DNA of 64,000 bases from Clostridia bacterium. Its GTDB lineage: Bacteria; Bacillota; Clostridia; Oscillospirales; CAG-272. The position numbers and the translations under genes were made by a program. The stretch is from NCBI GenBank assembly GCA_017461945.1, contig JAFTSB010000024.1, positions 56,592 to 120,591 of the forward strand, given 5' to 3'. Under the pieces are notes generated by a model. The model was given only the letters and a program-made list of their open reading frames with translations. It was not told where the DNA came from and made no database searches. Positions 3,927 to 49,273 of the stretch are shown here, one piece after another (the first letter of the stretch is position 1; each line of letters starts with the position of its first letter).

Positions 3927-4382
3927 TTATTTGTATTGATAGACTGTAAATGTTACATTATAAACGTTTATAAGTTGGGAAGGAGATAGGGAGTCTAATA
4001 TGTTATACGTGAATTGATATTCTTGGTTTGAAGCAAGATCTTTTTCTGTATAGATCTGCTGGCTGATAATTTCGTTATTGCTGTTGTATATGCATATTTT
4101 AAACGACAATTCTTTGTATTTGGCGTATGTTTTAGCATTTACTTGTATTTCACCAAGCTCCAAAACATTTTGATAAGATACGTTTGTTTCTATTTTGGGT
4201 GGGTGTTTTATTATTGCTGTCCATAATGTGGTTTCTTCACCCCAAACCATAGGCTGTTTTTTTAGATTTTTGGCAGTTGTTGCAATGTGGTTTCCAAGTA
4301 GAATTACTGCCAAAATACCAATACAAATAAGCAGTGTGAGTGCCAATATCAATATATTCATACCGTGTCTTTTTGCATCCAT
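3927..4382 (-). CDS. membrane-anchored hypothetical protein (151 aa), AT-rich cargo-like gene
   Basis: Start set at MDAKRHGMNILILALTLLICIGILAVILLG (RBS AGGAGGG, 7-nt spacer). Two 60-nt samples inside gave 28-32% G+C versus 57% in the neighbouring gene. Confidence 0.55.
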   Translation of the reverse strand: MDAKRHGMNILILALTLLICIGILAVILLGNHIATTAKNLKKQPMVWGEETTLWTAIIKHPPKIETNVSYQNVLELGEIQVNAKTYAKYKELSFKICIYNSNNEIISQQIYTEKDLASNQEYQFTYNILDSLSPSQLINVYNVTFTVYQYK

Positions 4383-4410
4383 ATATATCCCTCCTGTGAT
4401 GGCCACCCCC

Positions 4411-4440
4411 ATTATACACCCCCTCACAGCAAAAAGTCAA
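4411..4440 (-). promoter_or_regulatory. sigma-70-like promoter TTGACT-18-TATAAT for gene 3927..4382
   Basis: Minus strand reads TTGACT (4440-4435), an 18-nt spacer, then TATAAT (4416-4411), about 30 nt upstream of the start. Confidence 0.55.
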
Positions 4441-4472
4441 GCCCCGCGGGGACTCCCGTGGGGCCTTATCTT

Positions 4473-4490
4473 TTGAAAGTGCACTTTCAA
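4473..4490. repeat. 18-bp perfect palindrome TTGAAAGTGCACTTTCAA, copy 1
   Basis: Self-complementary. Overlaps the stop codon of mini-ORF 4487..4567 and lies ~33 nt upstream of the -35 above. Confidence 0.8.
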
Positions 4491-4567
4491 CTCGTGAGAC
4501 CAATATATAAACCAAATAAAATTGCGCCTATAGCGATCATTGCAAAAAATATTGTGATGTCATTCAT
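4487..4567 (-). CDS. 26-aa hydrophobic mini-protein (tentative)
   Basis: MNDITIFFAMIAIGAILFGLYIGLTS. Its ATG overlaps the TGA of the 768-aa gene (ATGA). A single predicted TM helix. Confidence 0.35.
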   Translation of the reverse strand: MNDITIFFAMIAIGAILFGLYIGLTS

Positions 4568-6870
4568 CGTTTCTTTTTCCTTTCCAGGTACTCACGCAAA
4601 GCGCGAGCGAGCTTTTGTTGCGCGGGGCGTATTTCAGTGTAGTATTTAAAATCATCCGGGTCCAGGTTCTCGTCGGTCTGCATCAGCGGATCAATGGGCT
4701 CCGGCTTGTCCGCGTCCACGTTGTAGTAGGTGAACAGATCCCGATTTAGGAAGGAATGCGCCTTTTTCATTTCGGGCACCGAGGCGTATTTGTCGCGGTA
4801 TGTGGGTATGTCGTTCAGCCCCACCTTGCACCGGGCGGTCTGCAGCTCAGCAAAGGCCTTGAAATAGTCGGTGGCATAGCGCTCTGCATAGGCCTTTTTG
4901 AACATGATAAAGTATTTTTTCTCCTCCACATCCTTGCTCTCCTTGCCGGCTTGTACGTTTGCCACAGTGGTGGTCTCACAGAGGATATTTTGTTGGTAGT
5001 AGCCGTATAGGTTTCTCCGCCGCAGAAGGTAGCGTGTAAGTACCGCTTGTATACCTTGACCCAGCCAGGTGATCAGATGGTTATTACCCCAGCGTAATCG
5101 ACTTTCGTTCCAGACTCCTCGCCACCATTTTACATATGCACCGAGGATACATTCCTCGATCCAGAATAGCGGCAGGGCCGTGTTGGTCTCCTTGTGCTTT
5201 TCTATGTGCATGATCTGGCAGAGCTCGTGGCCGTCCGCTCCCCAAGAGGATACGCGCTGTGCATTGCAGAATACGTGCATAAAACACCGATTGGCAAGCA
5301 TGGCCGGTTGGCCGGACATCTTGAACCAAGTGTTAAACATATCGTTTTTTTGGTTGCATTCGTCCTCCCTGGCCTTGACCTCCTTCAGCTGGTCCATGTT
5401 CTTGCGCTCCTTGTCGATCTCTGTGACCGATAGTACGCCAAATTCAAAGGCACCAACGTTGGGGTTGTCCTTCAGGATCTTGCGCCCCGGGCGTAGCATA
5501 TCATAGTCCAGAATGTGGCAATATTTGCCCTCGATGTGGATCCGTGCCGGGTCTCGGTGAAAAAAATCCACGTCCACTAAGGGAAAGTTCCCCTCATCCT
5601 CGATGATAAAATCGTCGCGGATCGGCAGATTGGCCAGGATGTAGGAGGTGGTCATGGTGTAGCTGAAATAGGCCTGCACGTATTCCTCCAGGGCATCCCA
5701 GATGGATATAATTTTGAGGTTGTCATCAAACTCGGTGGCATATTGCTCCACATCGTAATGCCAGATCAGCTCTGGCTTTTGGGTAAAAGCATAGGTGAGC
5801 CGCTGCACACGGACCCAGTTGCGAGCTGACACCCAATGCTTGATGGTGCCGTCGTGTATGCGGTCTTTGATGGTCAGCTCGAATGTGATCCACGGAAAGC
5901 GTGGGAATTTTTCTTGGTTTTCGTTCAGGATCGTCAGGTACTCCTTGCGGTCCATGGCCGCCCGGGTGATGGTCATATCGGTCTGTGCCATATCCTTGCC
6001 GGCACGCATGGGAGCCGCAAAGAAGGTGGCTTGTGGAGCCTCCTCCAGCATTCCCTTGTTGCGCGCCTCCATATGCTGCAAGCGGTCCATACCCTTGTGC
6101 TGCCGCCACTTATCAAATAGCCAAATGAAAAGCGCCGCCCAGCAGATCCCCGGCAGTACGTGCCAGGTCAGGAGCATATCCACCACCAGCTTTAGGCATT
6201 GCCGCCCAAGGGTGGAGAAATCCAGAAAATTGAGAATGTAAAAATAGTAGGCCAGAAATTCCAGTACCAGGGTGTATACGCCCAGGTATAGCAGCCATAT
6301 GGCAAGGAACGCGGTCCACCACCGGGAGCTGCGGAAAAAGTCCCAGAAATCCCAGAGCCAGTCCACCACGTGGCGCCAGGGCCGCACGATCCACCGTTTC
6401 CACCCTCGCAAGGACTTTGTGTCCTGGCCATAGTCGTTATTGATATCATCCCAGGTGATGGCCACCGGGATTGCAAGGATCAGTATCACGATCAAGGCAA
6501 TGGATAGATAATATAGAAATCGGGTCAGATGGTAGAGCAGAAAAATCAAGTATTGCAGAAAGTTTTGTCCTACCCAAATGTGGTCTTTCAGCTCGGTGAG
6601 CTTGCGGACGATCTCGGCCAGATCAATACCGATCTCGCTTTGCAAATTCACCGCCGAGAAGTCGTTGACCGTCTGCCGGAAGGGGAGACGGTCTCCCAGC
6701 TCGATCAGATCGGCAAAGGTGTAGGCGATGATGCGGCCAAAGTCGCTGATGCCCTCCAGGAGTCTGTAGAACGGATATTGATAAACGAATACTCCCAGGG
6801 CCACGGATCCCAGGATGATACCAAGGCACAGCCAGTGCCGCCAGTTAATGCTTTTGATCTTTTTCAGCAT
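4564..6870 (-). CDS. polytopic membrane protein with a large C-terminal soluble domain (768 aa); function unknown
   Basis: Start trimmed from TTG 6885 to ATG 6870 (MLKKIKS). At least 5 hydrophobic helices in the first ~260 aa, with a Trp-rich segment WKRWIVRPWRHVVDWLWDFWDFF. Walker-A-like AAPMRAGKD at nt 5992-6018. Confidence 0.7.
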   Translation of the reverse strand: MLKKIKSINWRHWLCLGIILGSVALGVFVYQYPFYRLLEGISDFGRIIAYTFADLIELGDRLPFRQTVNDFSAVNLQSEIGIDLAEIVRKLTELKDHIWVGQNFLQYLIFLLYHLTRFLYYLSIALIVILILAIPVAITWDDINNDYGQDTKSLRGWKRWIVRPWRHVVDWLWDFWDFFRSSRWWTAFLAIWLLYLGVYTLVLEFLAYYFYILNFLDFSTLGRQCLKLVVDMLLTWHVLPGICWAALFIWLFDKWRQHKGMDRLQHMEARNKGMLEEAPQATFFAAPMRAGKDMAQTDMTITRAAMDRKEYLTILNENQEKFPRFPWITFELTIKDRIHDGTIKHWVSARNWVRVQRLTYAFTQKPELIWHYDVEQYATEFDDNLKIISIWDALEEYVQAYFSYTMTTSYILANLPIRDDFIIEDEGNFPLVDVDFFHRDPARIHIEGKYCHILDYDMLRPGRKILKDNPNVGAFEFGVLSVTEIDKERKNMDQLKEVKAREDECNQKNDMFNTWFKMSGQPAMLANRCFMHVFCNAQRVSSWGADGHELCQIMHIEKHKETNTALPLFWIEECILGAYVKWWRGVWNESRLRWGNNHLITWLGQGIQAVLTRYLLRRRNLYGYYQQNILCETTTVANVQAGKESKDVEEKKYFIMFKKAYAERYATDYFKAFAELQTARCKVGLNDIPTYRDKYASVPEMKKAHSFLNRDLFTYYNVDADKPEPIDPLMQTDENLDPDDFKYYTEIRPAQQKLARALREYLERKKKR

Positions 6871-6877
6871 AGACACC

Positions 6878-6976
6878 TCATACAACGTAACGAAGCAGAA
6901 ATGCCAGATAGCCGAGGAACAAAGCCCCGGCTAAAATGGCAATAACGGTCAGCGTGCGCAGAACGATCTTTTTCAT
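6878..6976 (-). CDS. 32-aa hydrophobic mini-protein (tentative)
   Basis: MKKIVLRTLTVIAILAGALFLGYLAFLLRYVV. ATGA overlap with the upstream 61-aa ORF. Ends just before the start of the 768-aa gene. Confidence 0.4.
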   Translation of the reverse strand: MKKIVLRTLTVIAILAGALFLGYLAFLLRYVV

Positions 6977-7158
6977 TGCTCGTCCTCCTGAATTTCAGTA
7001 ATGGTAAACCATCCGGCACAAGGATACCCGGCGCAGTCCTTGCACCATTCCTCGCCATCAATGGCCGCCCGGATGGGATCGGTAAAGTCCTTGGTCATTG
7101 CCACGTGATCATTGTGGCAGCTCTCCAGCTCGGAGTAGTACGTGACACGGTAGATCAT
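6973..7158 (-). CDS. small Cys-containing hypothetical protein (61 aa)
   Basis: ORF-track entry. ATGA overlaps at both ends. Contains SCHNDH and CKDCAGYPC. Confidence 0.5.
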   Translation of the reverse strand: MIYRVTYYSELESCHNDHVAMTKDFTDPIRAAIDGEEWCKDCAGYPCAGWFTITEIQEDEQ

Positions 7159-7301
7159 GTGCCCCTCCTCTTGAATTTTGTCGTAGCGACTTTGTCGCCG
7201 GTTTCACGATCAAAGATCGCCAGATATCCATTTTCGTCCGCGGCATAGGTGAAATACTGTTCATCCCAATATCTTTGGGCGATGCATTCTTCTTTGGTCA
7301 T
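7155..7301 (-). CDS. small hypothetical protein (48 aa)
   Basis: MTKEECIAQRYWDEQYFTYAADENGYLAIFDRETGDKVATTKFKRRGT. RBS GGAGGTAACA before ATG 7301. Stop overlaps the next ATG. Confidence 0.45.
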   Translation of the reverse strand: MTKEECIAQRYWDEQYFTYAADENGYLAIFDRETGDKVATTKFKRRGT

Positions 7302-7318
7302 TGTTACCTCCTTTGATT

Positions 7319-7336
7319 TTGAAAGTGCACTTTCAA
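7319..7336. repeat. 18-bp perfect palindrome TTGAAAGTGCACTTTCAA, copy 2
   Basis: Identical to copy 1. Intergenic, between gene 7368..7760 and the RBS of 7155..7301. Confidence 0.8.
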
Positions 7337-7355
7337 GGGCGGCGCTGCCGCCCTT
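7335..7355 (-). terminator. GC-rich hairpin abutting palindrome copy 2 (attenuator/terminator-like)
   Basis: AAGGGCGGC-gct-GCCGCCCTT. No clean U-tract, so function is uncertain. Confidence 0.35.
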
Positions 7356-7367
7356 GGTGCGTGTAGA

Positions 7368-7760
7368 TTATCCGTATACGATTTTGCCAAACAATGCGTA
7401 TTGCAAGCAAGCATCGGCGCTGTCATCATCGTCCATAAGCGCCATGCCGATTCCGTCCAAAAGCTTTAGCAGGGTCAGCTCCCATTCCTCGTCTTCGTCC
7501 TCTATGTCAAACAGCGTGACCGCCTTTCCTTCCAAAAGGAGTTGGCAAGCGTATTGGCTGACCGGTAGTCCATGGGGCTTTTGGACCCATTCAGGCGTTG
7601 TGTTGTTGACTCCAACCCAATAATTGCTTTCGCATTCGAGGGCATCTACAACGATGTCCTCAATTTGTTCTGGTGTGATCTTGCATACCACGTTGAAGGT
7701 GCGCTCGCGGATTTCTTTTCTCAAAGAGTAGGTGCATCCGTTCTTTACATACATATCCAT
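7368..7760 (-). CDS. acidic hypothetical protein (130 aa)
   Basis: ORF-track entry. Acidic run DIEDEDEEWE and DDDDSAD. In an operon with the SprT-like gene. Confidence 0.6.
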   Translation of the reverse strand: MDMYVKNGCTYSLRKEIRERTFNVVCKITPEQIEDIVVDALECESNYWVGVNNTTPEWVQKPHGLPVSQYACQLLLEGKAVTLFDIEDEDEEWELTLLKLLDGIGMALMDDDDSADACLQYALFGKIVYG

Positions 7761-7806: not shown

Positions 7807-8490
7807 TTAAACTTTCAAAAGGTGTACGATTTTGCCGCTGCTGGCATAGCAGCAGCCGCAGATCAGATTGACATCCTTTGTCGCTCTGATCCCTTGTCCA
7901 CATTCGGGGCAAGTGTATTTCCGAGTGCTGGAGGGCTTTTTAGTGTTGACTCCGTTCGGGTCATCCGTCCCGGTGGCGCCGGTTCCAGCCTTACCGCCCG
8001 GAGGGGGTAAAATCGTACGCACGCCATCGTGGCGGGTGATCCGGATTTCCTCCAGGCCGTTTTCGATACACCATTCAATCAATCGCTCCGAGGGCTCGGT
8101 GTGTGACCATCCGATCCGGTCATCATGGGTGATCACCAGATCACGCTTGACGGCTTCGTCACGAAACTTGGTATTGTGGTAGGTGTAACCGCGCGAGGTG
8201 TCCTTGATACCGTGGGCAAGGTTATAAAGGTGTACCATCTCGTGCAACATCGTTGCCACCACGTTTTCGATGGGGCGTGTCAGCGTGCCCGCCCCGATGT
8301 TCAACTCGTGCCTTTCCTCTTCCTCGCTGGTCCATACCTTTGTCACGGTCACGTGCCCATAGGCTTTGGGTGTGCTTTGAATGGTGATAACCGGTTTTGA
8401 AAGTGCATTTTCAAAATAGCTTGCATTCAGCAACGCAAAAATTTTGTTTAGGTAACCGGAAACGCGGTTGTATTCGGTCATTTGTTTCAT
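7807..8490 (-). CDS. SprT-like zinc metallopeptidase domain protein with C-terminal zinc ribbon (227 aa)
   Basis: HEMVH (HExxH) motif. C-terminal CPECG...CGCC. Start set at MKQMTEY (GGAGGA RBS, 7-nt spacer) rather than ORF-track 8505. Confidence 0.8.
   Translation of the reverse strand: MKQMTEYNRVSGYLNKIFALLNASYFENALSKPVITIQSTPKAYGHVTVTKVWTSEEEERHELNIGAGTLTRPIENVVATMLHEMVHLYNLAHGIKDTSRGYTYHNTKFRDEAVKRDLVITHDDRIGWSHTEPSERLIEWCIENGLEEIRITRHDGVRTILPPPGGKAGTGATGTDDPNGVNTKKPSSTRKYTCPECGQGIRATKDVNLICGCCYASSGKIVHLLKV
8397..8414. repeat. 18-bp palindrome, copy 3 (one mismatch: TTGAAAGTGCATTTTCAA)
   Basis: Lies inside the SprT-like CDS (codons ENALSK). Confidence 0.6.
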
Positions 8491-8601
8491 TTGTGCATCC
8501 TCCATAAAATCAAGGTGTAGTTAGTACCACAGCCATTTTGTGCAAGATTCCGAAAATCACGGATGACCCTTGCAAAAGGTCGTGCCGTATGGTAAGATAG
8601 T

Positions 8602-8638
8602 CACCGAGAGGAACGGGTGCGAGCCGTTCCCCTCGGTG
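8602..8638 (-). terminator. strong stem-loop downstream of mini-gene 8667..8846
   Basis: CACCGAGAGGAACGG-gtgcgag-CCGTTCCCCTCGGTG. Weak U-tract. Confidence 0.4.
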
Positions 8639-8666
8639 GGGCTTTCCCACTTTCGGCCGTTAGCCG

Positions 8667-8846
8667 TTAGCCGTCAGCTTGTTTCAAGTTGACGGCTTTT
8701 TTCTTGCCTTGCAATTCAAGGCAACGCTCGATGCGCGAGAGCAACACGTTGGCGCACTCCACGTTGTGCCCGGTCGGACGCGTTGTGTACTCCGCAAGAG
8801 CCGTGACAAGGGTTACAATCTCCTTGTCATTGACAAATAACTGCAT
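8667..8846 (-). CDS. small hypothetical protein (59 aa)
   Basis: MQLFVNDKEIVTLVTALAEYTTRPTGHNVECANVLLSRIERCLELQGKKKAVNLKQADG. RBS AAGGGGGTGAG. Below the ORF-track cutoff. Confidence 0.45.
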   Translation of the reverse strand: MQLFVNDKEIVTLVTALAEYTTRPTGHNVECANVLLSRIERCLELQGKKKAVNLKQADG

Positions 8847-8849
8847 ATT

Positions 8850-9338
8850 CTCACCCCCTTTCCCGGAACCCCAGAGCCCTTCGGGCTCCGCATCCCCACC
8901 GCCGGTGGCGGTGGAACTTCATGCTCCTTCGGTCCCTCGTTCCCCGCATCCTTTTGCTCGCGGTGGATATTTAGACCTCAGGTGTGATTCCTTCATGCTC
9001 CTTTCGGTTGCCCTGTTCCCGGAGATGAAGCAGCACTGTAGACTCGCAGGGTCAAGGGATCAGCTCGAAAAAATTTTCTTTCCTTTCAAATTCGTTCAAA
9101 GGAAAAATTTTTCGACCCCTTGACCCTGCGGGGATACTGTGCTACGATTCGGAGCGGAACTGGAAAACAGAAAGGAGTGTGAAGGATGCCGGAGGTTGAA
9201 ATATCCAACGCAAAAGAGCAAAATCCGCGTCCCGCCATCCGCAGATGGCGAAACCACAGCCAGGCCAAAACAACTTTTCAAGAAAACAAAGGACTCCCAC
9301 CCAACCAAGGACAAGGCGACGCGTCCGAGGGGGTGAGG
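8850..9338. repeat. ~490-bp imperfect palindrome (two ~240-bp inverted arms, loop at ~9090-9094)
   Basis: Mirror blocks: CTCACCCCCT 8850-8859 with AGGGGGTGAG 9328-9337. TGGATATTT 8964-8972 with AAATATCCA 9199-9207. CGCAGGGTCAAGGG 9046-9059 with CCCTTGACCCTGCG 9117-9130. TCGAAAAAATTTTC... with ...GAAAAATTTTTCGA around the centre. Confidence 0.8.
9120..9148 (+). promoter_or_regulatory. sigma-70-like promoter TTGACC-17-TACGAT (TGn extended -10) on the right palindrome arm
   Basis: TTGACC 9120-9125, 17-nt spacer, TGC-TACGAT 9140-9148. The mirror site on the left arm keeps the -35 (9055-9050) but has a poor -10 (TGCTTC). Confidence 0.45.
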
Positions 9339-9359
9339 GTCAAGCGGGTAGCGACCCCA

Positions 9360-10560
9360 CCCCCTCAGCGCGCCGCCCCGTGAAAAGTCTAAACGCAGCA
9401 TATGCAAAGAAAGGAGTCTATCCAAAATGCCGAGAACCACCAAACACTACAAGAACATCACCAAACCCATCCGGGATAAGCTTGAAGCGCTGTATAATGC
9501 AGGCGTACCCGTTAAGCAAATTTCGGAAGAACTCGGCTATACATTTCAAAGCATCTACCGTGAACTCAAGCGCGGTTACTATATGCACCTCAATTCTGAT
9601 TGGACAGAAACGCGGAAATACAGCGCAGATAAAGCTCAATATTTCGCAGACTTGAATGCCACCGCAAAAGGAGCTCCTCTTAAAATTGGAAATGATCAAC
9701 AGTTTGCAAAATTCGTGGAGGATATGGTGTTGAATGGATATTCTCCCGCTGCCATCCTTGATTTCATCAAAGATAACGGCCTAAAGTTCAATACGAAAGT
9801 GTGCCGTGGTACCCTCTATTCGTATATCGATAAAGGGCTTTTTTTGCGCATTACAAATAAAAACCTGCTTCGTAAAGGTAAGCGTAAAAGAAAACACAAA
9901 AAGGTAAAGGCAGCCAAGCAATTACCCAAAATAGAGCATAGTATAGAAAAACGCCCGCAGGAGATCGCAAAACGGATCACCTTCGGGCATTGGGAGCTTG
10001 ATTCGGTTGTAGGAACACAGAAAAAGGGTGAGACCCTTCTGTGTATGACAGAAAGGCTCACCCGTATGGAGATCATATTTAAATCCCCGGATAAGTCTGC
10101 CGCAAGTACGGTTACAATGTTGAACCGCCTGGAGTGCAAATTCGGAAGCCGTAACTTTCGTCAAATTTTCAAAAGCATTACTTGTGATAATGGAACGGAA
10201 TTTTCCAATACTACGGGAATGGAATACTCCCCGTACACCGGCAAAAAGCGAACCGCCGTGTATTACTGCCACCCGTATTGTTCCTCGGAACGTGGCTCTA
10301 ATGAGAACCAAAACGGTTTTATTCGTCGTTTTATCCCCAAAGGCACCAGAATAAGCAATTACACGAACCAACAGATACAAAGTATCCAGGATTTTATCAA
10401 CGGCTATCCTCGGCGCCTTTTTGACGGTGAAAGCAGCATAAAACGTTTCAAAAATGAGTTAGAAAAACTCAATATAAAAATTTTTGCCTAAAATTCACTC
10501 AACCTCTTGACATTTGCAAACTTTTTTAACTTTTTTTGCCGCAGAGTGCGAAAAAATGTG
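9360..10560 (+). mobile_element. IS30-family insertion sequence (ends approximate)
   Basis: A single transposase ORF of the IS30 type. Only weak candidate terminal inverted repeats seen (about 9365-9393 versus 10525-10553), so boundaries are provisional. Confidence 0.6.
9427..10491 (+). CDS. IS30-family DDE transposase (354 aa)
   Basis: N-terminal HTH region. GHWELDSV, CDNGTEF and SERGSNENQNGFIRRFIPKG motifs typical of IS30 transposases. RBS AAAGGAG. Confidence 0.9.
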   Translation: MPRTTKHYKNITKPIRDKLEALYNAGVPVKQISEELGYTFQSIYRELKRGYYMHLNSDWTETRKYSADKAQYFADLNATAKGAPLKIGNDQQFAKFVEDMVLNGYSPAAILDFIKDNGLKFNTKVCRGTLYSYIDKGLFLRITNKNLLRKGKRKRKHKKVKAAKQLPKIEHSIEKRPQEIAKRITFGHWELDSVVGTQKKGETLLCMTERLTRMEIIFKSPDKSAASTVTMLNRLECKFGSRNFRQIFKSITCDNGTEFSNTTGMEYSPYTGKKRTAVYYCHPYCSSERGSNENQNGFIRRFIPKGTRISNYTNQQIQSIQDFINGYPRRLFDGESSIKRFKNELEKLNIKIFA

Positions 10561-12393: not shown

Positions 12394-14150
12394 GCAAGAC
12401 CATTCCGATTTTTTACGCTTGCGACAATAACTTTTTTAAATATACCGTGGTATCCTTGGCTTCTATGATTGCCAATGCCTCTCCGCGTCATCAGTACGAG
12501 GTGCATATCCTGCACACCGATATCACCCCCGAAAATCAGGCCATTGCCAAGCGTTTGGAAACTAAGCAATTTACTGTGACCTTTGATGATGTGACCGAGT
12601 ATCTGCATTCCATCAAGGATAAAATGCCCATCCGCGATTACTACTCCAAAACCACTTATTACCGACTGTTCATTGCCGATATGTTTCCCGAAATCAAAAA
12701 GACAATCTACATTGACAGTGACACCATTGTTCAAGGTAACATTGCCGAGCTCTATGACCACAACATCAGCGATTATGCTGTTGGCGCTTGCCACGAGCAG
12801 GCTATGGTTCAAGAGAACGTATACGGTACCTATGTAGAAAAATGCATCGGTATTGACCGCAACTCCTTCTTCAATGCGGGCGTTTTGCTGATCAACTGTG
12901 AGTATTTCCGCGAGAACAAGGTGCTGGGGCAGTTTATGGAGCTGCTTGGCTTTTACAATTTCCGCGTCACGCAGGATGAGGACTATCTCAATGTTATTTG
13001 CCGTGACAAGGTCTTGTTCCTACATCAAAAATGGAACACCGAGGTCTTTGGTGATATTTTTGTCCCCCTGGAGGAGGCCTGCGTGATCCATTACATCATG
13101 GTCGCCAAGCCCTGGCACTTCCACGATTGCCATTGGGGTGATATCTTTTGGAAATACGCCGAACAAACCGAGGTGTATGGCGATCTGAAGGAAATCCTTG
13201 ACACCTATACAGACGAGCAAAGAGCCGAGGATATGGCCTCTTGCGACCGCCTTGCACAGCTTGCTATTGAAGAAACCAATCGCCCCGATACCTATGTGGC
13301 CCGTGTTAAGGAAAAGGTCCGTGAAGAACGTATGCGCGTGTTGGAAAAGATCGAACAGTATGAGCGCGAAGGTCGCTTTGATGAGGATGTGGAGGATGAC
13401 CCGCCCGGACGCCAGATTCGCCCCGGTGAGGTGGATTATCTGCGCAAAAAGCCCATCAGCCGCGTCAATCGTCGCATTGCCTACAATATGGCAAAGCACT
13501 TTTTGGACAAGATTTTAAAAGAGAAAAAGATGATTGTAAAAGACATCATTGGCGCCGAGCATTTCGCAGAGCTGGAAAGCGGCGCGATGATCACCTGCAA
13601 CCATTTTAACGCTTTTGACAGCTTTGCTATGCAAATGGCTTATGAAAAGGCCGATGTCAAAGGGCGTGCCCTTTTCCGGATCATTCGCGAGGGCAATTAT
13701 ACCTCTTTCCCCGGCTTTTACGGCTACCTTATGCGCAATTACAACACCCTGCCCCTTTCTTCCAACGCCAAGGTCATGCAGGAATTTATGCGTGCCACCA
13801 GCCTGCTTTTGCAAAAGGGGCATTTTATCCTGATCTATCCCGAGCAAAGTATGTGGTGGAACTATCGTAAGCCTAAGCCCCTGCAAAAGGGTGGTTATTA
13901 TATTGCCGCCAGAAACAACGTGCCCGTTCTCCCCTGCTTTATCACAATGGAGGATAGCGATCTGATCGGCGAAGACGGATTCCCCATTCAGGAATACACC
14001 ATTCACGTCTGCACTCCCATTTATCCCGATCCCGAAAAAACAGTCAAGGAAAATACCGCCATGATGATGGAGAAAAACGCAGAGATCTGGAAGGACATTT
14101 ACGAAACCACCTACGGCATTCCGCTCTCGTATACCACCGAGCAAAAATAA
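12390..14150 (+). CDS. fusion protein: N-terminal GT8 glycosyltransferase + C-terminal PlsC-like acyltransferase (586 aa)
   Basis: N-terminal half: IYIDSDTIV (DxD), NAGVLLIN, QDEDYLN. C-terminal half: CNHFNAFD (H-x4-D) and IYPEQSMWW. Confidence 0.75.
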   Translation: MSKTIPIFYACDNNFFKYTVVSLASMIANASPRHQYEVHILHTDITPENQAIAKRLETKQFTVTFDDVTEYLHSIKDKMPIRDYYSKTTYYRLFIADMFPEIKKTIYIDSDTIVQGNIAELYDHNISDYAVGACHEQAMVQENVYGTYVEKCIGIDRNSFFNAGVLLINCEYFRENKVLGQFMELLGFYNFRVTQDEDYLNVICRDKVLFLHQKWNTEVFGDIFVPLEEACVIHYIMVAKPWHFHDCHWGDIFWKYAEQTEVYGDLKEILDTYTDEQRAEDMASCDRLAQLAIEETNRPDTYVARVKEKVREERMRVLEKIEQYEREGRFDEDVEDDPPGRQIRPGEVDYLRKKPISRVNRRIAYNMAKHFLDKILKEKKMIVKDIIGAEHFAELESGAMITCNHFNAFDSFAMQMAYEKADVKGRALFRIIREGNYTSFPGFYGYLMRNYNTLPLSSNAKVMQEFMRATSLLLQKGHFILIYPEQSMWWNYRKPKPLQKGGYYIAARNNVPVLPCFITMEDSDLIGEDGFPIQEYTIHVCTPIYPDPEKTVKENTAMMMEKNAEIWKDIYETTYGIPLSYTTEQK

Positions 14151-14212
14151 CAAAAAAAGACCGGCTATTGCGTGATATCCTTAGCGGGAAATTTGCACCA
14201 ATCATAATAAAG

Positions 14213-14250
14213 AAAAAGTCATTACGAAACTGTTCGTAATGACTTTTTCT
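14213..14250. terminator. bidirectional terminator
   Basis: AAAAAGTCATTACGAA-actg-TTCGTAATGACTTTTT between convergent gene ends. Confidence 0.75.
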
Positions 14251-14264
14251 TTTAAGTCTTTTTA

Positions 14265-14402
14265 TTACCATGGCTTGTTCTTTTTCTTTTCTTCAGCCCG
14301 CTTCTTCGTATAATATCCTATGATAGCAGCCCTTTGCTTTTGCTTTGCCTCCGGCGTTTTTGCTTTCACATATTTTCCTTTTCCAAGAGGTTTCTTTTTC
14401 AT
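14265..14402 (-). CDS. 45-aa lysine-rich mini-protein (tentative)
   Basis: MKKKPLGKGKYVKAKTPEAKQKQRAAIIGYYTKKRAEEKKKNKPW. Its ATG overlaps the TGA of the upstream 253-aa gene (ATGA). Confidence 0.4.
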   Translation of the reverse strand: MKKKPLGKGKYVKAKTPEAKQKQRAAIIGYYTKKRAEEKKKNKPW

Positions 14403-15160
14403 TGTATTTCCTCCTCATAAGAAATGACCGTGTCGTATTCTTCGTTTTCATAGTATTTTTGCAACAATCCTATCAACTTTTCAGATGGCTTATATTTTCT
14501 TTCAACAAGATACGAATCGCGCATCTTGCATAGAGGAATTGCACCAATTACTTTGTTTGTTAAATCATATCCAATCAAGTAATTGCTTTGGTCATATGTA
14601 AAGCCGTAAACATAGTGAAAAGCAAACACTCTGATTGACTTACTGTTTACTGTTTCGTGAAAAATTCTGCCTGTTTCACACGCCTTTGCAAAATTGCAAA
14701 GTTCGTCATCAAATGCTATCATTTCACGCTTGTATTGAGGCAATCTTGAATACTCGTTTAACAGTCCGCGTATGTACTCAGTGGTTGTTTGTCCTGTTAT
14801 TTTCGTTTCAGATTGCTCAATTTCATCAAACACTGCATTTTGCTTTGTTGATGGTCTAAACCATATTACCTCATCTAAAATTTCCAATTCCGCATCCGAA
14901 AAATACACTTGATCTATAACGGTGTTTACACACTCGTAAATGGCTTCCGTGTCATTTCTTGCAAAATCTGTGTTCAATATTCTGTGAATTTCATCACGCC
15001 TTGTTTTTCGGAAATATAACAAATTCGGTATAAGCTTATTAAGCAGTCCATTCAAATTTGGCTCTTTTTCTTTTTTCAGAAATCCAAACCTTTCTGCATC
15101 GTTTTGAAGAATTTGAAACACAAAATCCGATACGGATAGCTTTATAATAGAAGAAATCAT
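14399..15160 (-). CDS. hypothetical protein with a WYL-like C-terminal segment (253 aa)
   Basis: C-terminal IRVFAFHYVYGFTYDQSNYLIGYDLTNKVIGAIPLCKMRDSY resembles the WYL-domain pattern (aromatic-YL...hydrophobic...R-[DI]). RBS GAGGTGA. The assignment is by eye only. Confidence 0.6.
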   Translation of the reverse strand: MISSIIKLSVSDFVFQILQNDAERFGFLKKEKEPNLNGLLNKLIPNLLYFRKTRRDEIHRILNTDFARNDTEAIYECVNTVIDQVYFSDAELEILDEVIWFRPSTKQNAVFDEIEQSETKITGQTTTEYIRGLLNEYSRLPQYKREMIAFDDELCNFAKACETGRIFHETVNSKSIRVFAFHYVYGFTYDQSNYLIGYDLTNKVIGAIPLCKMRDSYLVERKYKPSEKLIGLLQKYYENEEYDTVISYEEEIQ

Positions 15161-15340
15161 TTCATCACCTCATAACTATTTTACACTATGTAAACCTAAA
15201 AATCAACATATTATTAGAAAATATACCCATTTTGTAAACCACCAAATTCAAAATACAGAGGACAGACAAACAAAAGAATTTATGATAGACTATTGTTGCA
15301 GGGTAAAAATCTTGACTTTATTTCAAGGAGGTGATATACT

Positions 15341-15652
15341 ATGAGCAGAAAACCTTATAAGCAGTTTCATCACGGCAAAGAATTTCCAAAGACGCAGTAC
15401 AAAAGCAAACCGTTCAAATGGATTCCGTTCAGTTATATAGACACTTACAATGCCTATACTGGAAGGTTTCGTTCAAGAAGAAAATTCGGTTCGGACGGTT
15501 GGGCGTATAAAGATTTGGATACGCCCGATAATCACAAGCCATATGATCATGTGCACGACATTAAAAACGGGAAGAGAGCAAAAGACCGTAAGCCAAACAG
15601 GCAAGAACGTAAAGAATTTGAAAAAGCTAAAAAGAAAAGGAGATTTATGTAA
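15341..15652 (+). CDS. small strongly basic protein (103 aa), toxin-like candidate
   Basis: RBS AAGGAGGTGA. About 30 K/R residues out of 103. His/Asp-rich core DTPDNHKPYDHVHD. Lys/Arg tail. Confidence 0.65.
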   Translation: MSRKPYKQFHHGKEFPKTQYKSKPFKWIPFSYIDTYNAYTGRFRSRRKFGSDGWAYKDLDTPDNHKPYDHVHDIKNGKRAKDRKPNRQERKEFEKAKKKRRFM

Positions 15653-15918
15653 TGCTTGATTTAACAAAATACAACCTCGATGATGATGACATTGAGTTTG
15701 TAAAAGATATGAAGGAAGATATTGAAAACCAGAACGAAATTATATTGGCATACCAAGGAAAATCGTTTGTTTTGGAGCCAAGCGGCGAAGCTGTGCATGT
15801 TTATGCCTATGGTGAGGATTTGGGAGATTACGAGAGCTTTGATGATTTACTTCTTAACCATAAAATTGATGGCAAACCTTTAATCGAGCTTGTAAAAGAG
15901 ATTGAATACGGTGACTGA
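15652..15918 (+). CDS. small strongly acidic protein (88 aa), antidote/immunity-like candidate
   Basis: Start shares one nucleotide with the upstream stop (TAATG). Rich in D/E (LDDDDIEF, EDLGDYESFDD). Confidence 0.65.
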   Translation: MLDLTKYNLDDDDIEFVKDMKEDIENQNEIILAYQGKSFVLEPSGEAVHVYAYGEDLGDYESFDDLLLNHKIDGKPLIELVKEIEYGD

Positions 15919-16130
15919 TTCAAAAACAACATCACTTCTGCAATATTAAACATTCCTAACATAGAAAAGAGAGAACATTCCGGATTTGAGCCGTTTTGTT
16001 CCCTCTTTTTGCTTTTGATAGGGGTTTGAGCTTAACCCATTTTTCATTCGACTGGTCAAATGAGACGCTTGCGCTTTTGGCAAGCAATAAATGATCGGAT
16101 AAGGACATCACCCCTTGGCCGGCCCTGCTT

Positions 16131-33842: not shown

Positions 33843-36329
33843 TTAAGTGATCGGTTGCTTTAACAGCACGCTGTTTTGTTTGGCCGTGCTGGAGGCGCGC
33901 AGCGCTTCCCCGTCATAGACCTTTGTATATTTGATGGTGCTGTTATCAGGGTCCGCCACATTGATCAAACGGATCATATCCTGATCCTCACCCGTAATCT
34001 CCATGGTGGTATTATACAGACCGGAAAGAACGATCATTTTCACGCTTGCCAAATGATAAGCAATCTGGTAGTCAACCTCATAATACCAGGTCTTGGTGCG
34101 ATTCGATTCATTGGTATAGCCACGGAAATCACCGCAGCTGGTGGGCCACCAAAGCACGTCGGGTGCAACGGTTTCATAGAACTGAAGCGTTACACCGGTA
34201 TGACCGTGGTGGGCAACTTGACAATGATCCGATTTCAGCGTATCACCATACATTGCCAGCATTCTGCGGCCTCCGATGCGCTCAACGTCACCCAGCCAAA
34301 TGCAGGTGCTGGTATCCTTGGTGCCATCCTTGTGCTTGGTTTCCATTGTGGTGCGAACCACGGTGGAGCTGTTATTGAAGTACTCCAAACGTTGAGGATA
34401 AGTATCCTCATGGGTATAGAGCACATCCATCTTCAAATTGGCAAAGTAGAATACCTGACCGGTATGTACAGTAACTACATCAAAACCGCCCTTGACATAG
34501 CTCTGCAGATTTTTCATATCCGTCTGTACAGTGCTTTGAGGGTTGTTGGAGTTTACACGCTCCGATGCCGAGCAAAGATTGGTCAGCAAGCGATCGAACT
34601 GCAGCTCCTCATACTTACCGTATGTCTGCAGGAATTTGCGGAACACCTGGAAATGGTCAGTATGCTCGTGCGTCAGGATCCACGCCCGGATGCGAATGGG
34701 ATGCTGCTTGCTGGGCGCAACACCGTTGTAAGCGATCTTATGCAGCTCATTGAGCGTATTCCACAGGTTTGCAACATCATCGCTGGCGCGACCGGAGCCG
34801 CCGTCATAAATGATGAAACTGCCATCTGCCAACGTAATAACAAAGGACATGCCGAAATTGCCCAGTTTCTTGCCTTCACTATCATAGGTCGTACTATCTA
34901 GCAACTGAATTTGGGTGATCTTGGGATCGGTTCGCCATTCATAGGTCTGCTTGGGATTCAGCATTTCCGCATCGGGCAGCGTGCTGTATTTGGCATTGGT
35001 AGCAATAATGCGAATACTTTTGAGAGCATCCGTAATATTCTTGTTTTCTGCATGCTTGTAGGCGGCATGATAAACGTGAAGCGCCGTACCGGTGTCTTTA
35101 TTATAGTAGGTGCGGAAACTGCTTCCCTCCACCTGATTTTCGGCGGCCAGAGTAGCAAAACCGGCGGCCTCCAGCTGCTGACAATATGCCACATAGGAGT
35201 CACGGCTGATGCCGTCACCGGTATAAATATATTCTACGGAATAATCGCCAACTTCAGCCGTACCGTCCAGCTGAATACCCTCGCCCGTGGGCTTGGGGAA
35301 ATCCACCTCCCATTCGGCGGCGGTACTACCCTTAACGGTACAGTTTACAGGAATATTATACACGGTGGTGCCGTCGGCGCTCTCCTCGGCACAACCTTTC
35401 AGCACATCCTCAAACAAGGCGTAGGTGGGATCCAGGGTCACATCGTTCCATGCAGCCAGAACGATATTGCCATTGATAGTGCTAACAGCATACTCATTGG
35501 CTTCAAGAGTGTTCAAGATCTGTCTGGATTCCTCACGAGTGGTGTTGCCGATCTGCACCTCGCGTTCCCCTTCCACTGGGTCAACTTTATCTGTCATAAA
35601 AGGGAAAGTAGAGGCTCTCGCCGCAGTCTTTTCAATCAACAGTTTTTGTATGTTCTGGCTGAATGTATAAGGGAAATCCACATCGGGACCGCCCTGCGTG
35701 GGATTGGGATCAGCGTGATATCCCAGCGCGTTCACCGTATCGTCCACGCGATCGCTGTATACCAAAGTGTACTGCCCTTCGCCGGCCTCATCCTTCAGCT
35801 GAACCGTTTCCAGCTTGGCAAGACGAATCTCCTCAGGCATGGTAACAACCGTACCCCTTACATTATCTGCTTTGAGACAGTTTTCTACAAAATAATCCAA
35901 TGCCACGCGGGTCAAAAAGGGCGTCGTACCAAGGATCACGATCTTAAATTCGAAAACCTGAATACCCCAACCGTAGCCTTCGATGGCGTTGTTGAGCTTG
36001 ACAGTTTCTTCACGGTTGGTGTTTCCGATCAGAATCTCCAGATCCTCGGTTTCCACAACCTCACTATATTCGTCGCTGGAGGCGCGCAAAGAAAGCGTTG
36101 TAATCTTTTTCAGCATTTTAGCAAAGGTAGAGACCTGTGCCCTGCCCCCATCGGTCAGTTCATCCGAATAAACGATGGTATAATCGGTCAAGTCCACCTC
36201 TACGGTTTTCTCGCTAATGGCCGGATTTACTCCATCACCATTTCCAATATCCTTGGCACAGGAAGAGAGTAGCGTAGCCGCAGACAACAGCATCGCAAAG
36301 CACAAAAGCAAGCTAATGATCTTTTTCAT
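33843..36329 (-). CDS. lipoprotein with C-terminal ComEC-type MBL-fold domain, paralogue A (828 aa)
   Basis: MKKIISLLLCFAMLLSAATLLSSC (lipobox). THEHTDH, YTHED, WLGDVER, VAHHGH. Start trimmed from 36359 (RBS AAAGGAG). Confidence 0.85.
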   Translation of the reverse strand: MKKIISLLLCFAMLLSAATLLSSCAKDIGNGDGVNPAISEKTVEVDLTDYTIVYSDELTDGGRAQVSTFAKMLKKITTLSLRASSDEYSEVVETEDLEILIGNTNREETVKLNNAIEGYGWGIQVFEFKIVILGTTPFLTRVALDYFVENCLKADNVRGTVVTMPEEIRLAKLETVQLKDEAGEGQYTLVYSDRVDDTVNALGYHADPNPTQGGPDVDFPYTFSQNIQKLLIEKTAARASTFPFMTDKVDPVEGEREVQIGNTTREESRQILNTLEANEYAVSTINGNIVLAAWNDVTLDPTYALFEDVLKGCAEESADGTTVYNIPVNCTVKGSTAAEWEVDFPKPTGEGIQLDGTAEVGDYSVEYIYTGDGISRDSYVAYCQQLEAAGFATLAAENQVEGSSFRTYYNKDTGTALHVYHAAYKHAENKNITDALKSIRIIATNAKYSTLPDAEMLNPKQTYEWRTDPKITQIQLLDSTTYDSEGKKLGNFGMSFVITLADGSFIIYDGGSGRASDDVANLWNTLNELHKIAYNGVAPSKQHPIRIRAWILTHEHTDHFQVFRKFLQTYGKYEELQFDRLLTNLCSASERVNSNNPQSTVQTDMKNLQSYVKGGFDVVTVHTGQVFYFANLKMDVLYTHEDTYPQRLEYFNNSSTVVRTTMETKHKDGTKDTSTCIWLGDVERIGGRRMLAMYGDTLKSDHCQVAHHGHTGVTLQFYETVAPDVLWWPTSCGDFRGYTNESNRTKTWYYEVDYQIAYHLASVKMIVLSGLYNTTMEITGEDQDMIRLINVADPDNSTIKYTKVYDGEALRASSTAKQNSVLLKQPIT

Positions 36330-36366
36330 AATATGCTCCTTTCGTTGTGAATTTTTCACCGATTAT

Positions 36367-36395
36367 ATTGTAACACGCCACCGCTGCTTTGTCAA
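36367..36395 (-). promoter_or_regulatory. promoter TTGACA-17-TACAAT for paralogue A
   Basis: Minus strand: TTGACA 36395-36390, 17-nt spacer, TACAAT 36372-36367. Confidence 0.6.
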
Positions 36396-36445
36396 CGATT
36401 AACAATTGCGATACGTTTAAGTTTAAAAATTTGTTCACGATTCGT

Positions 36446-36476
36446 AAAAAAAGAGGGTGCAAAGCACCCTCTTTTC
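36446..36476 (-). terminator. terminator after paralogue B
   Basis: AGAGGGTGC-aaa-GCACCCTCT with an A-run on the plus strand (a U-run on the minus-strand transcript). Confidence 0.7.
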
Positions 36477-36478
36477 GC

Positions 36479-38875: not shown

Positions 38876-38880
38876 TGCGT

Positions 38881-41250: not shown

Positions 41251-41293
41251 AACAAATCTCCTTCAAAGGATTAACTTTTAAAAAGTTAATCTC

Positions 41294-41322
41294 ATTTTAT
41301 CACCATTCCGCCTCTTTGTCAA
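41294..41322 (-). promoter_or_regulatory. promoter TTGACA-17-TAAAAT for the C-B pair
   Basis: Minus strand: TTGACA 41322-41317, 17-nt spacer, TAAAAT 41299-41294. Confidence 0.6.
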
Positions 41323-41378
41323 TGTAAACCAAAACAAACGAAATGAAAATTTGAAATTTGTTCATTTTTACAGCACAT

Positions 41379-41410
41379 AAAAAGAACTCCCGTGCTTTCA
41401 CGGGAGTTCT
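41379..41410 (-). terminator. terminator after paralogue D
   Basis: AGAACTCCCGTG-cttt-CACGGGAGTTCT preceded by AAAAA on the plus strand. Confidence 0.7.
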
Positions 41411-41420
41411 TGAAGAAAGA

Positions 41421-43838: not shown

Positions 43839-43877
43839 AATCTAACTCCTTTTATAGTTGAATTTATGATCAAGAGA

Positions 43878-46265: not shown

Positions 46266-46297
46266 GCTGTACTCCTTTTAAAAATATCATCCAACTT

Positions 46298-46326
46298 ATT
46301 TTACCATTTTCTCATCCGCTTGTCAA
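46298..46326 (-). promoter_or_regulatory. promoter TTGACA-17-TAAAAT for the E-D pair
   Basis: Minus strand: TTGACA 46326-46321, 17-nt spacer, TAAAAT 46303-46298. Confidence 0.6.
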
Positions 46327-46381
46327 TGATAAACAACCCAAAAGCTAAGATGTTTTAAATTTTGTTCATATATCATAAGAA

Positions 46382-46409
46382 AAGCGCCGCACCCGAGGGT
46401 GCGGCGCTT
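46382..46409 (-). terminator. terminator after paralogue F
   Basis: AAGCGCCGCACCC-gag-GGTGCGGCGCTT. Confidence 0.65.
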
Positions 46410-46414
46410 GGGGT

Positions 46415-48928: not shown

Positions 48929-49013
48929 ACCTATTACTCCTTTGAAAATATTGCCGACACGGTCGGCTTGTATTTGGTATATGTTCCCAAATGCACATAC
49001 CAAGGACTTATAT

Positions 49014-49042
49014 ATTATATCATTGATCTTTTCATTTTGCAA
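49014..49042 (-). promoter_or_regulatory. promoter TTGCAA-17-TATAAT for paralogue F
   Basis: Minus strand: TTGCAA 49042-49037, 17-nt spacer, TATAAT 49019-49014. About 80-nt leader. Confidence 0.6.
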
Positions 49043-49273
49043 GCATCGCCGAAATCTTTCACTTTTCAAACGTTAAATTCATCCTTTTTCACAAAAAAAA
49101 CAAGGCGCTTTTTGTGATAAGCAACAAGCAAAAAAGCATTTTGTGTTCTTCGCTATAGAAAAAATGAACACTTCGTGTCCAAGCCGCATCGTGTGCTTCC
49201 CTTGCGTTTTTTAACAAATGTCGTCTCGTCCCTCGTTGATAAAAAAGATTAGCGTCACTCGCAAAAAATTCTC

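Follow-up and report, generated by a model that had tools for sequence, protein, structure and literature searches.

What does a long imperfect palindrome do when it lies between two divergently oriented genes of an integrated mobile element? We met this question in a 64,000-nucleotide (nt) stretch of DNA, hereafter the window, from a member of the Clostridia (Oscillospirales, CAG-272; GenBank assembly GCA_017461945.1, contig JAFTSB010000024.1, positions 56,592 to 120,591), which was placed on a 126-kb metagenome scaffold (L001). Here a palindrome centered on 9090-9094 lies between a leftward gene for a SprT-like zinc metalloprotease and a rightward gene for an IS30-family transposase, inside a 12.2-kb element that encodes a rolling-circle Rep. 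From the structure, conservation and strand preference described below, we infer that its 272-nt core is probably a promoter and initiation hairpin specific to single-stranded DNA (ssDNA), similar in design to the Frpo/ssi elements and related at the family level to ssoA origins. The first-pass annotation of this DNA had listed a rolling-circle single-strand origin as an alternative to a single-strand promoter, but the two are probably the same thing rather than rivals.

The palindrome had been annotated as about 490 bp long with arms of about 240 bp. Its existence and its center were borne out, but its size was not, as the core imperfect palindrome covers 8952-9223 (272 nt) with arms of about 130 nt. 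It would form a long hairpin if the + strand, which is Rep-sense and SprT-antisense, were single stranded. Aligned against each other with few small indels, the arms 8952-9089 and 9095-9223 are identical in 99 of 146 columns (68%, against the roughly 70% judged by eye for the inner arms), and their Smith-Waterman score of 66 was reached by none of 500 dinucleotide shuffles (16.1 +/- 2.4). Folding as ssDNA gave structures far stabler than those of shuffled sequence: the core folds at -79.5 kcal/mol on the + strand (z -11.5) and at -68.9 kcal/mol on the - strand (z -10.5), making the hairpin 10.6 kcal/mol stabler on the Rep-sense strand, and the full 8850-9338 interval (489 nt) folds at -119.9 (z -9.8) and -113.8 kcal/mol (z -8.0), respectively. 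Among 300-nt segments of the 12.2-kb element, the palindrome was the stablest (-86.7 kcal/mol, versus a mean of -39.0 and a standard deviation of 8.9) and the only one to fall below -75 kcal/mol, the cut-off applied to mine ssDNA promoters in pESBL (PMC12672017). A search of the region with Rfam at gathering and E <= 1 thresholds returned no family, only sub-threshold microRNA-type hairpins and a weak mmgR-like match.

The outer ~100 nt on each side (8850-8951 versus 9224-9338) had been described as mirrored in blocks. A perfect 10-mer is indeed present at the extreme ends (8850-8859 and 9328-9337), but the remaining complementarity is not significant, with 21 of 500 shuffles equaling the best alignment, which consists of the 10-mer only. 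As this 10-mer does not rise above chance and has a rival pairing in a local hairpin (9327-9338 with 9355-9366), we rejected it as the base of a 490-nt hairpin. The outer left flank (8850-8951) forms local hairpins only, at 8873-8887 and at 8896-8914, the second of which had been foreseen and is present in the fold.

The core contains a promoter whose two halves behave differently in the folded strand. On the right (3') arm, the + strand carries a -35 element TTGACC (9120-9125), a 17-nt spacer, TG at 9140-9141 and a -10 element TACGAT (9143-9148). This TTGACC-17-(TGc)TACGAT sequence at 9120-9148 is the sole strong sigma-70-type match in a promoter scan of 8400-9500, which confirms the annotated promoter pointing away from the SprT operon; in duplex DNA it is directed at the transposase gene. 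The same scan gave no match on the minus strand, so no duplex promoter was found for the SprT operon. Opposite the promoter, the left (5') arm of the + strand (9027-9055) presents GGTCAA (9050-9055), the complement of the spacer, and GAAGCA (9027-9032), which is mismatched against the -10 in the minimum-free-energy pair table. Read on the minus strand, this mirror site is TTGACC-17-TGCTTC; it keeps the -35 and the spacer, in agreement with the earlier description of a -35 beside a poor -10. In the + strand fold, TTGACC is fully paired with GGTCAA and 14 of the 17 spacer positions are paired; A9144, C9145 and A9147 of the -10 are unpaired, as are 9152-9154 around the expected start. The apex is an A+T-rich, UP-element-like hairpin (9065-9115, + strand) formed by two GAAAAA(A)TTTT(T)C boxes, GAAAAAATTTTC and GAAAAATTTTTC, at 9067-9078 and 9102-9113. 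UP-like A+T elements belong to descriptions of Frpo (PMC11541004), and an apex of this type recurs in L034, L018, L007, L035, L015 and other related loci. The pairing seen here, along with the same layout in 21 distinct related modules, supports the proposal that the right arm serves as the non-template strand and the left arm as the template for leftward reading into SprT.

To place this structure among its relatives, we gathered 150 loci from genomes, viral contigs and metagenomes, mostly of Oscillospiraceae, Christensenellaceae and other Clostridia, and scanned 1.97 Mb of them for inverted TTGAC boxes 20-130 nt apart, with no requirement for pairing. Isolates that carry related loci include Oscillibacter sp. 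1-3 (L016), Lawsonibacter faecis NSJ-52 (L018) and Gemmiger formicilis (L039, L044). Up to 700 nt upstream of SprT there were 63 distinct TTGAC pairs, 21 of them with at least 12 of 18 complementary flank positions and 20 more with 9-11. Elsewhere in the loci, 232 pairs included none with at least 12 (maximum 10, mode 4). With relaxed settings, the scan recovered the module from 49 of 135 loci, in most cases 60-100 nt ahead of the start codon of SprT, so that the homologous palindromes sought beside SprT genes in related elements do exist. In loci with an IS30-type transposase we also observed palindromes of 130-180 nt just upstream of SprT (L010 9788-9950, L013 6392-6573, L042 9768-9899 and L062 1250-1431). 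These have no exact TTGAC boxes (e.g., CTCAAGGG...CCCTTGAG) and so fall outside the module scan, and they are probably diverged versions of the module.

The spacers of the module vary among loci yet pair inside each locus. We aligned 17 distinct arm pairs, with the apex swapped for a fixed GAAA loop, and counted 132 double-sided changes in the spacer columns compared with 52 +/- 6 in shuffles, none of 500 of which reached 132; the covariation score was 0.594 versus 0.187. In-register cells were paired in 75.6% of cases and partners slid by 1-3 columns in 33-36%, a percentage that is partly circular because pairing guided the choice of the aligned sequences. The diversity of pair types and the unbiased count of TTGAC pairs are free of this circularity, as is the sharp stop of the pairing, which ends exactly at the -10 hexamer and leaves six columns unpaired in 8-15 of the 17 sequences. 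The two arms also differ in what they carry beyond the spacer. Of the 21 modules, 9 carry a TGn followed by a -10 starting with TA (TACGAT, TACTCA, TACTTG, TATTTC, TATCTC, TATCTG, TACTTC, TACCTT or TATATC) on the arm that points away from SprT, and none does so on the SprT-facing arm; a further 6 of the 21, all of one family, have CATACT or CAAACT on the former arm.

Several features point to one strand as the one that folds. Among the related modules, G.T wobbles on the SprT-antisense strand number 41 versus 4 A.C mismatches, the latter corresponding to wobbles on the other strand, and 23 versus 4 when one sequence per cluster is counted (binomial p = 3e-4). The SprT-antisense strand folds more stably in 20 of 21 modules, and the Rep homologues lie on it in 18 of 18 loci. 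Since neither a duplex operator nor a cruciform can give such a bias, the structure is likely to be that of one single strand, the Rep-sense strand. In addition, the outward promoter has no divergent gene to drive in about half of the related loci; there the gene upstream is co-directional and encodes a tyrosine integrase, SLH-domain proteins, or Rep_3 along with a TetR-like gene. This suggests that the outward promoter has been kept for its role in the hairpin.

The module is found on several backbones. An HUH-SF3 (superfamily 3) Rep accompanies an IS30-type transposase in the window, L065 and L070, whereas L048, a circular contig of 8.7 kb, combines an SF3 Rep with a tyrosine integrase. A third type, L122, is a circular 8930-bp mobilizable plasmid (55-nt terminal overlap) with Rep_3, a MOBV relaxase (Mob_Pre) and a T4 coupling protein. 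Downstream of its SprT gene are a helix-turn-helix gene and an orphan C5 DNA methylase, a gene set typical of anti-defence leading regions (PMC11541004), and L122 looks like a Gram-positive counterpart of such a leading region. In the inovirus-like locus L003, which has a true Zot and Rep_trans, a repressor-controlled divergent promoter stands in place of the hairpin module. Taken across these backbones, the module appears to represent a widespread and so far undescribed Gram-positive class of single-strand promoters or origins.

A second type of apex ties the module to known single-strand origins. In about 25 loci, including L113, L122, L129, L008, L019 and L138, the SprT-antisense strand carries, about 117-151 nt upstream of SprT, the order CCGTGGAATAA, a small AGCG/TAGCGA hairpin, TTATGCCGCGAAAG, 4-6 nt and TTGAC. 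The published ssoA motifs are RSB, TTATGCCGAGAAAATTT, and CS-6, TAGCGT (PMC4598088). In the pT181 and pE194 records, a long hairpin of the + strand is closed at its base by TTTATGCCGAGAAAAC paired with GGAAATTGGAATAAA and has TAGCGA near its tip. The pT181/pE194 ssoA motifs TGGAATAA, CS-6 and RSB (TTATGCCGAGAAAA) have matches on the equivalent strand in these ~25 relatives, but in an everted order: the duplex of RSB with TGGAATAA is at the apex, the RSB-like motif precedes the -35 by 4-6 nt, and the promoter is directed outwards. These loci were picked by the RSB motif alone, yet nearly all of them carry a -35-like hexamer (TTGAC, TTTAC or TTGAT) at a fixed distance, which therefore gives independent support for reading the structure as a promoter. 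The palindrome of the window belongs to the other apex class, with two boxes of the GAAAAATTTTTC type as its A+T-rich hairpin.

A close variant shows which parts of the palindrome are held. A second element, found in public runs X2 and X4, shares only 8854-9253 with the window, at ~90% identity, and has different flanks, suggesting that the hairpin region moves as an exchangeable cassette. It differs by 38 substitutions, leaves the promoter hexamers unchanged and folds at -83.2 kcal/mol. Three pairs show double compensatory changes, two from T-A to C-G (8955/9220 and 8972/9199) and one from T-A to A-T (9086/9098), and five one-sided changes retain pairing. The promoter-proximal part is constrained and the outer stem less so. 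A 65-amino-acid (aa) open reading frame (ORF) in the right arm (9186-9383) is unlikely to be a gene, as the variant changes 9185, 9187 and 9188 and destroys its ATG.

Rolling-circle machinery is present in the element, as a single-strand function would lead one to expect. A 24-bp direct repeat brackets 12,234 bp, with one copy beside the hrcA promoter to the left of the window and the other, TTTGCAAACTTTTTTAACTTTTTT, at 10513-10536; directly inside these repeats are short terminal inverted repeats, GTTGAGTGAAT and ATTCACTCAAC, the latter at 10493-10503, so that the right element end spans 10493-10536. The direct repeats enclose the palindrome, which makes it internal to an integrated rolling-circle element. 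The left end corresponds to L001 20179-20203, and the insertion point adjoins the hrcA CIRCE/promoter region. The Rep (343 aa) starts 719 nt to the left of the window and its 3' end occupies 1-312 on the + strand, the strand that forms the hairpin. It has a plasmid-type HUH origin-binding domain (Pfam Rep_OBD, 2.6e-10) and an SF3 helicase domain (RNA_helicase, 4.7e-08), both above cut-off, and iterons (GGTGCAAAA) lie upstream of it.

At the other end of the element, the transposase gene (9427-10491, + strand) encodes a DDE enzyme of the IS30 family (NCBIfam transpos_IS30, E 4.6e-67) and faces outwards. In 39 related loci an IS30-type gene likewise stands upstream of the SprT homologue and diverges from it, which argues that the transposase is not a chance neighbor. 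We found no inverted repeats flanking 9427-10491 alone; given this, the position kept in 39 loci and repeats that enclose 12.2 kb, we rejected the possibility that it is an independent insertion sequence (IS) of ~1-1.3 kb. The suggestion that a neighboring IS had created the inverted repeat does not hold, as the transposase is the element's own gene and the repeats of the element lie outside it. The transposase is the integration enzyme of the element and would be served in duplex DNA by the promoter at 9120-9148.

The SprT-like protein (7807-8505, - strand) has an HEMVH motif and a C-terminal zinc ribbon, matches Pfam SprT-like and phrog_6361, and has 2979 homologues. Its best fold match in the PDB is the ssDNA-activated protease SPRTN (6mdw, probability 1.0), and its match to ArdC (6sna) is marginal. 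By fold match the protein is thus closer to SPRTN than to the ArdC-like metalloproteases named in the first-pass annotation. One can speculate that it strips covalently bound Rep or relaxase from the incoming strand, or that it attacks host defence proteins. Between the hairpin and SprT, the first gene encodes a 59-aa protein (8667-8846, - strand, in the ORF list and also called as a gene in L001), a homologue of which precedes SprT in L003 (38% by tblastn). The 59-aa gene, SprT and the genes that follow are all oriented with the + strand as template.

These observations can be combined into a possible mechanism. As the element encodes a Rep with HUH and SF3-helicase domains, it would be expected to pass through a single-stranded stage by rolling-circle replication, and packaging or transfer as ssDNA is possible. 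In the Rep-sense (+) strand the arms would pair and rebuild a duplex -35 (TTGACC) and spacer, with the A+T-rich, UP-like apex upstream, and the -10 TACGAT, with TG before it, would lie in a partly open bubble on the non-template arm. Host sigma-A RNA polymerase could bind this pre-melted promoter and copy the left arm, giving an RNA that would start near 9028 and run leftwards through 8846. Such an RNA might prime the complementary strand, serve as message for the 59-aa protein, the SprT-like protease and the products of the genes further on, or do both. Initiation by RNA polymerase at the hairpin, with either priming or expression as the main role, is what the architecture predicts. Once the duplex has formed, the leftward promoter would vanish because its own strand has no -10, and the same hexamers would then drive the rightward IS30-type transposase gene, whose product would integrate the element.

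Several observations weigh against this interpretation. A blastn search of 8600-9420 against 72,556 plasmids and 50,697 phage records gave no match and hence none to a known Frpo/ssi. The motifs that connect the relatives to ssoA are not in the window copy: its palindrome has neither RSB nor CS-6, with no TAGCG in 8952-9223, and RSB (TTATGCCGAGAAAA) with up to one mismatch has no copy anywhere in the 12.2-kb element. The module of the window stands 546 nt away from the start codon of SprT, and about 100 nt away from the 59-aa gene, whereas 18 of 21 relatives have it at 72-83 nt, and the arms reach about 70 nt beyond the promoter. In about one-third of the related modules no -10 can be recognized where the spacing would place it, the window taken by itself shows a weak G.T bias (7 versus 3), and as a duplex promoter of the transposase gene the right-arm sequence is perfectly good. 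Pairing is broken by about 10 of the substitutions in the ~90% variant, most of them within the outer stem (9176-9199), and because this stem decays so fast, the palindrome may in part be an inverted duplication that is drifting. Finally, the + strand is taken to be the single strand indirectly, from Rep orientation (18 of 18), the G.T bias and the orientation of the ssoA motifs.

Some of these points would suit other explanations. An ordinary duplex promoter/operator region between the transposase and the SprT operon, its symmetry reflecting a dimeric regulator or mirrored promoters, would account for a palindrome located between divergent genes and for a right-arm promoter that is good in duplex; moreover, L003, L024, L025 and L031 have an RHH-like repressor gene, perfect divergent TTGACA-17-TATAAT promoters and short operator repeats. 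We nevertheless consider it unlikely, because the SprT-facing arm is without a -10 in 21 of 21 modules, the paired arms range from 23 to 130 nt and are free in sequence while complementary, unlike operators, and about half of the loci have no divergent gene, while the excess of G.T over A.C indicates selection on one strand, which duplex binding or a cruciform cannot yield. A recent inverted duplication of a promoter and its leader, produced by template switching or by the transposase and then drifting neutrally with only the transposase promoter functional, is quite unlikely as an account of the whole, even though drift of this kind probably explains part of the outer stem. Both arms carry an RBS-like (ribosome-binding-site-like) GAAAGGAG followed by ATG or GTG, outer-stem changes in the variant are uncompensated, and the arms of the window are much longer than those of its relatives. 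On the other hand, the promoter-proximal architecture is the same in loci whose SprT proteins are only 50-60% identical, implying that this part is old and maintained, 8854-9253 is shared as a unit by two elements with different flanks, and the three double compensatory changes compare with ~0.6 expected by our own estimate.

That the hairpin acts in RNA, as a structured antisense RNA, leader or terminator, seems very unlikely to us. A one-strand bias towards G.U-compatible wobbles is also expected of RNA, and terminator-like and hairpin elements lie nearby, along with the sub-threshold Rfam match at 8622-8712. However, the favored strand is SprT-antisense and no promoter is placed to transcribe both arms, the sole promoter being inside the 3' arm and pointing away; an invariant -35, a -10 at 17 nt and the ssoA DNA motifs would have no role in RNA, and no Rfam family reaches threshold. 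CTXphi-type phages integrate via a folded ssDNA hairpin, and the palindrome adjoins a transposase gene near one end of an integrated element, which could suggest a recombination substrate, either an attachment site of that type or an end or junction bound by the IS30-type transposase. We regard this as extremely improbable: the direct repeats and the terminal inverted repeats are situated not at the palindrome but 1.3 kb to its right and, on the other side, left of the window, the terminal repeat sequence is absent from it, and the module also occurs in tyrosine-integrase elements and a plasmid. A single-strand promoter and initiation hairpin is therefore the reading that we favor.

The remaining genes of the element surround this region on both strands. 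The rest of the minus-strand block (3927-7760) contains ORFs of 130, 48, 61 and 32 aa, a 768-aa membrane P-loop NTPase (4564-6870) and a 144-aa membrane protein, and this block could be transcribed from + strand ssDNA. The 768-aa protein combines a helical membrane N-terminal half with a P-loop NTPase domain and has 69 homologues. Walker A and B motifs are present in the family alignment, with the Walker A degenerate in the window copy (APMRAGKD) and canonical in relatives. An attempt to name the protein from the PDB and Pfam failed, giving no Pfam hit and a generic P-loop fold only; its AF2 model (pLDDT 77.9) has a weak Zot-like match in BFVD (probability 0.97, E 0.02, target TM 0.46). Between Rep and the minus-strand block, the plus strand has four genes whose products range from 59 to 648 aa, three with a hydrophobic N terminus. 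A hairpin cluster was also seen between the 59-aa gene and SprT (8506-8700), with a hairpin at 8602-8638 and a terminator-like one at 8669-8697. The same interval has a weak inverted promoter-like pair, TTGCAA(8570)-17-TGgTAAGAT on the + strand and TTGCAC-16-TAACTA on the - strand, and the sub-threshold Rfam match at 8622-8712 is the mmgR-like one. The hairpins and the promoter-like pair may be a remnant of a SprT-proximal module.

Two other regions of the window drew attention. Six tandem paralogous ORFs of ~790-880 aa lie on the minus strand at 33843-49069, two of them 48% identical, with no Pfam hit; their N termini are of the lipoprotein type (..LLASCSK) and their C-terminal THEHxDH is as in metallo-beta-lactamase-fold enzymes. 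At 14001-16000, between the glycosyltransferase genes and the RlmL/UvrA genes, GC content drops to 34-37% versus ~48% elsewhere, and a 253-aa ORF there (14399-15160) has no Pfam hit.

To our knowledge, single-strand promoters have been demonstrated only in enterobacterial IncF and IncI plasmids, where they time the expression of anti-defence genes to the first minutes after DNA entry. In Gram-positive bacteria, searches have so far been fruitless or the idea was dismissed: the authors of the pLS20 study ruled out a single-strand promoter (PMC8708921), and a Streptococcus island yielded no Frpo-like sequence (PMC11541004). If our reading is correct, the single-strand-promoter principle would extend to another phylum and to rolling-circle integrative elements, and promoter-type hairpins would be linked to the classical ssoA origins through shared motifs. 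It would also provide a testable model in which one set of hexamers serves different genes in ssDNA and in double-stranded DNA (dsDNA), and make the SprT/SPRTN-like protease a candidate early establishment factor of abundant gut mobile elements. A broader proposal, which we put forward tentatively and hold to be somewhat short of an even chance, is that rolling-circle integrative elements, mobilizable plasmids and tyrosine-integrase elements of gut Clostridia share an undescribed class of ssDNA promoter, an "everted ssoA" with evolutionary ties to ssoA origins and coupled to a strand-state switch, with an SPRTN-like protease and priming on the incoming or displaced single strand and an integration enzyme on the duplex.

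Comparison with known systems may clarify where the module belongs. On the side of the protein, the element resembles ArdC and SPRTN/Wss1 systems in having a SprT-type HExxH zinc protease on mobile DNA taken to enter as ssDNA, but it differs from ArdC in that its SprT-like protein has no ArdC N-terminal ssDNA-binding domain. ArdC acts early in the recipient after transfer (PMC7213743). On the side of integration, the IScream phages (PMC12823448) likewise have an outward-facing IS30-family transposase at one end of an integrated element of gut Clostridia, where it serves as the integration enzyme. These are dsDNA phages of >10 kb that encode structural and lysis proteins and have a decayed second copy of IS30 at their opposite end, whereas the window holds a 12.2-kb HUH-Rep element with a single transposase gene, and no hairpin promoter has been described for them.

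The closest parallel in overall design is Frpo/ssi of the IncF and IncI1 plasmids (Masai & Arai 1997; PMC11541004; PMC12672017). Both consist of a long imperfect ssDNA stem-loop in which the -35 and its spacer are duplex, the -10 is imperfectly paired and an A+T-rich, UP-like part lies upstream. Both precede an establishment-type gene. If the + strand is the single strand, the module of the window would, like Frpo/ssi, read away from the loop into genes templated by that strand; a switch-off upon duplex formation is expected, and for Frpo, too, both priming and transcription have been suggested as roles. The module of the window has no sequence similarity to Frpo/ssi, however, and its host is a Gram-positive member of the Clostridia. 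The promoter geometry described for Frpo/ssi was borne out, but the conjugative-plasmid leading region was not, as no relaxase, oriT, type IV secretion system (T4SS) or coupling protein was found in this element; the carrier is an integrated rolling-circle element mobilized by an IS30-type enzyme. In most relatives the stem stops at the -10 in a fork-junction shape instead of continuing past it, and in the window the hexamers double as a duplex promoter for the opposite gene.

Filamentous phages offer another likeness, since hairpins [B] and [C] of the Ff minus-strand origin are ssDNA structures that present host RNA polymerase with imitations of -35 and -10 elements and so initiate the complementary strand. 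What the Ff origin yields is a short primer only, without expression of any gene. The related locus L003 is inovirus-like, but the 768-aa NTPase of the window is only weakly Zot-like.

The ssoA/palA origins of pT181, pE194 and pMV158 are orientation-specific hairpins on the displaced Rep-sense strand that are recognized by host RNA polymerase. Our module would resemble them in this if the Rep-sense strand, on which the hairpin of the window is the stabler, is the displaced one, and the relatives, though not the window, have RSB (TTATGCCGxGAAA), TGGAATAA and a CS-6-like TAGCGA on the same strand, the apex of the window being A+T-rich instead of made of RSB and CS-6. Because it has no sequence homology to Frpo, lies in no conjugative leading region and has a window copy without ssoA motifs, we keep the module outside both Frpo proper and ssoA. 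RSB pairs with TGGAATAA at the base of the hairpin in ssoA and at the apex in the relatives. In ssoA, RNA synthesis is thought to enter the loop and stop at CS-6, giving a primer of ~20 nt. In the everted arrangement, the apex of RSB and TGGAATAA just upstream of the -35 would send RNA polymerase outwards rather than into the loop, and this outward reading would permit run-off into SprT.

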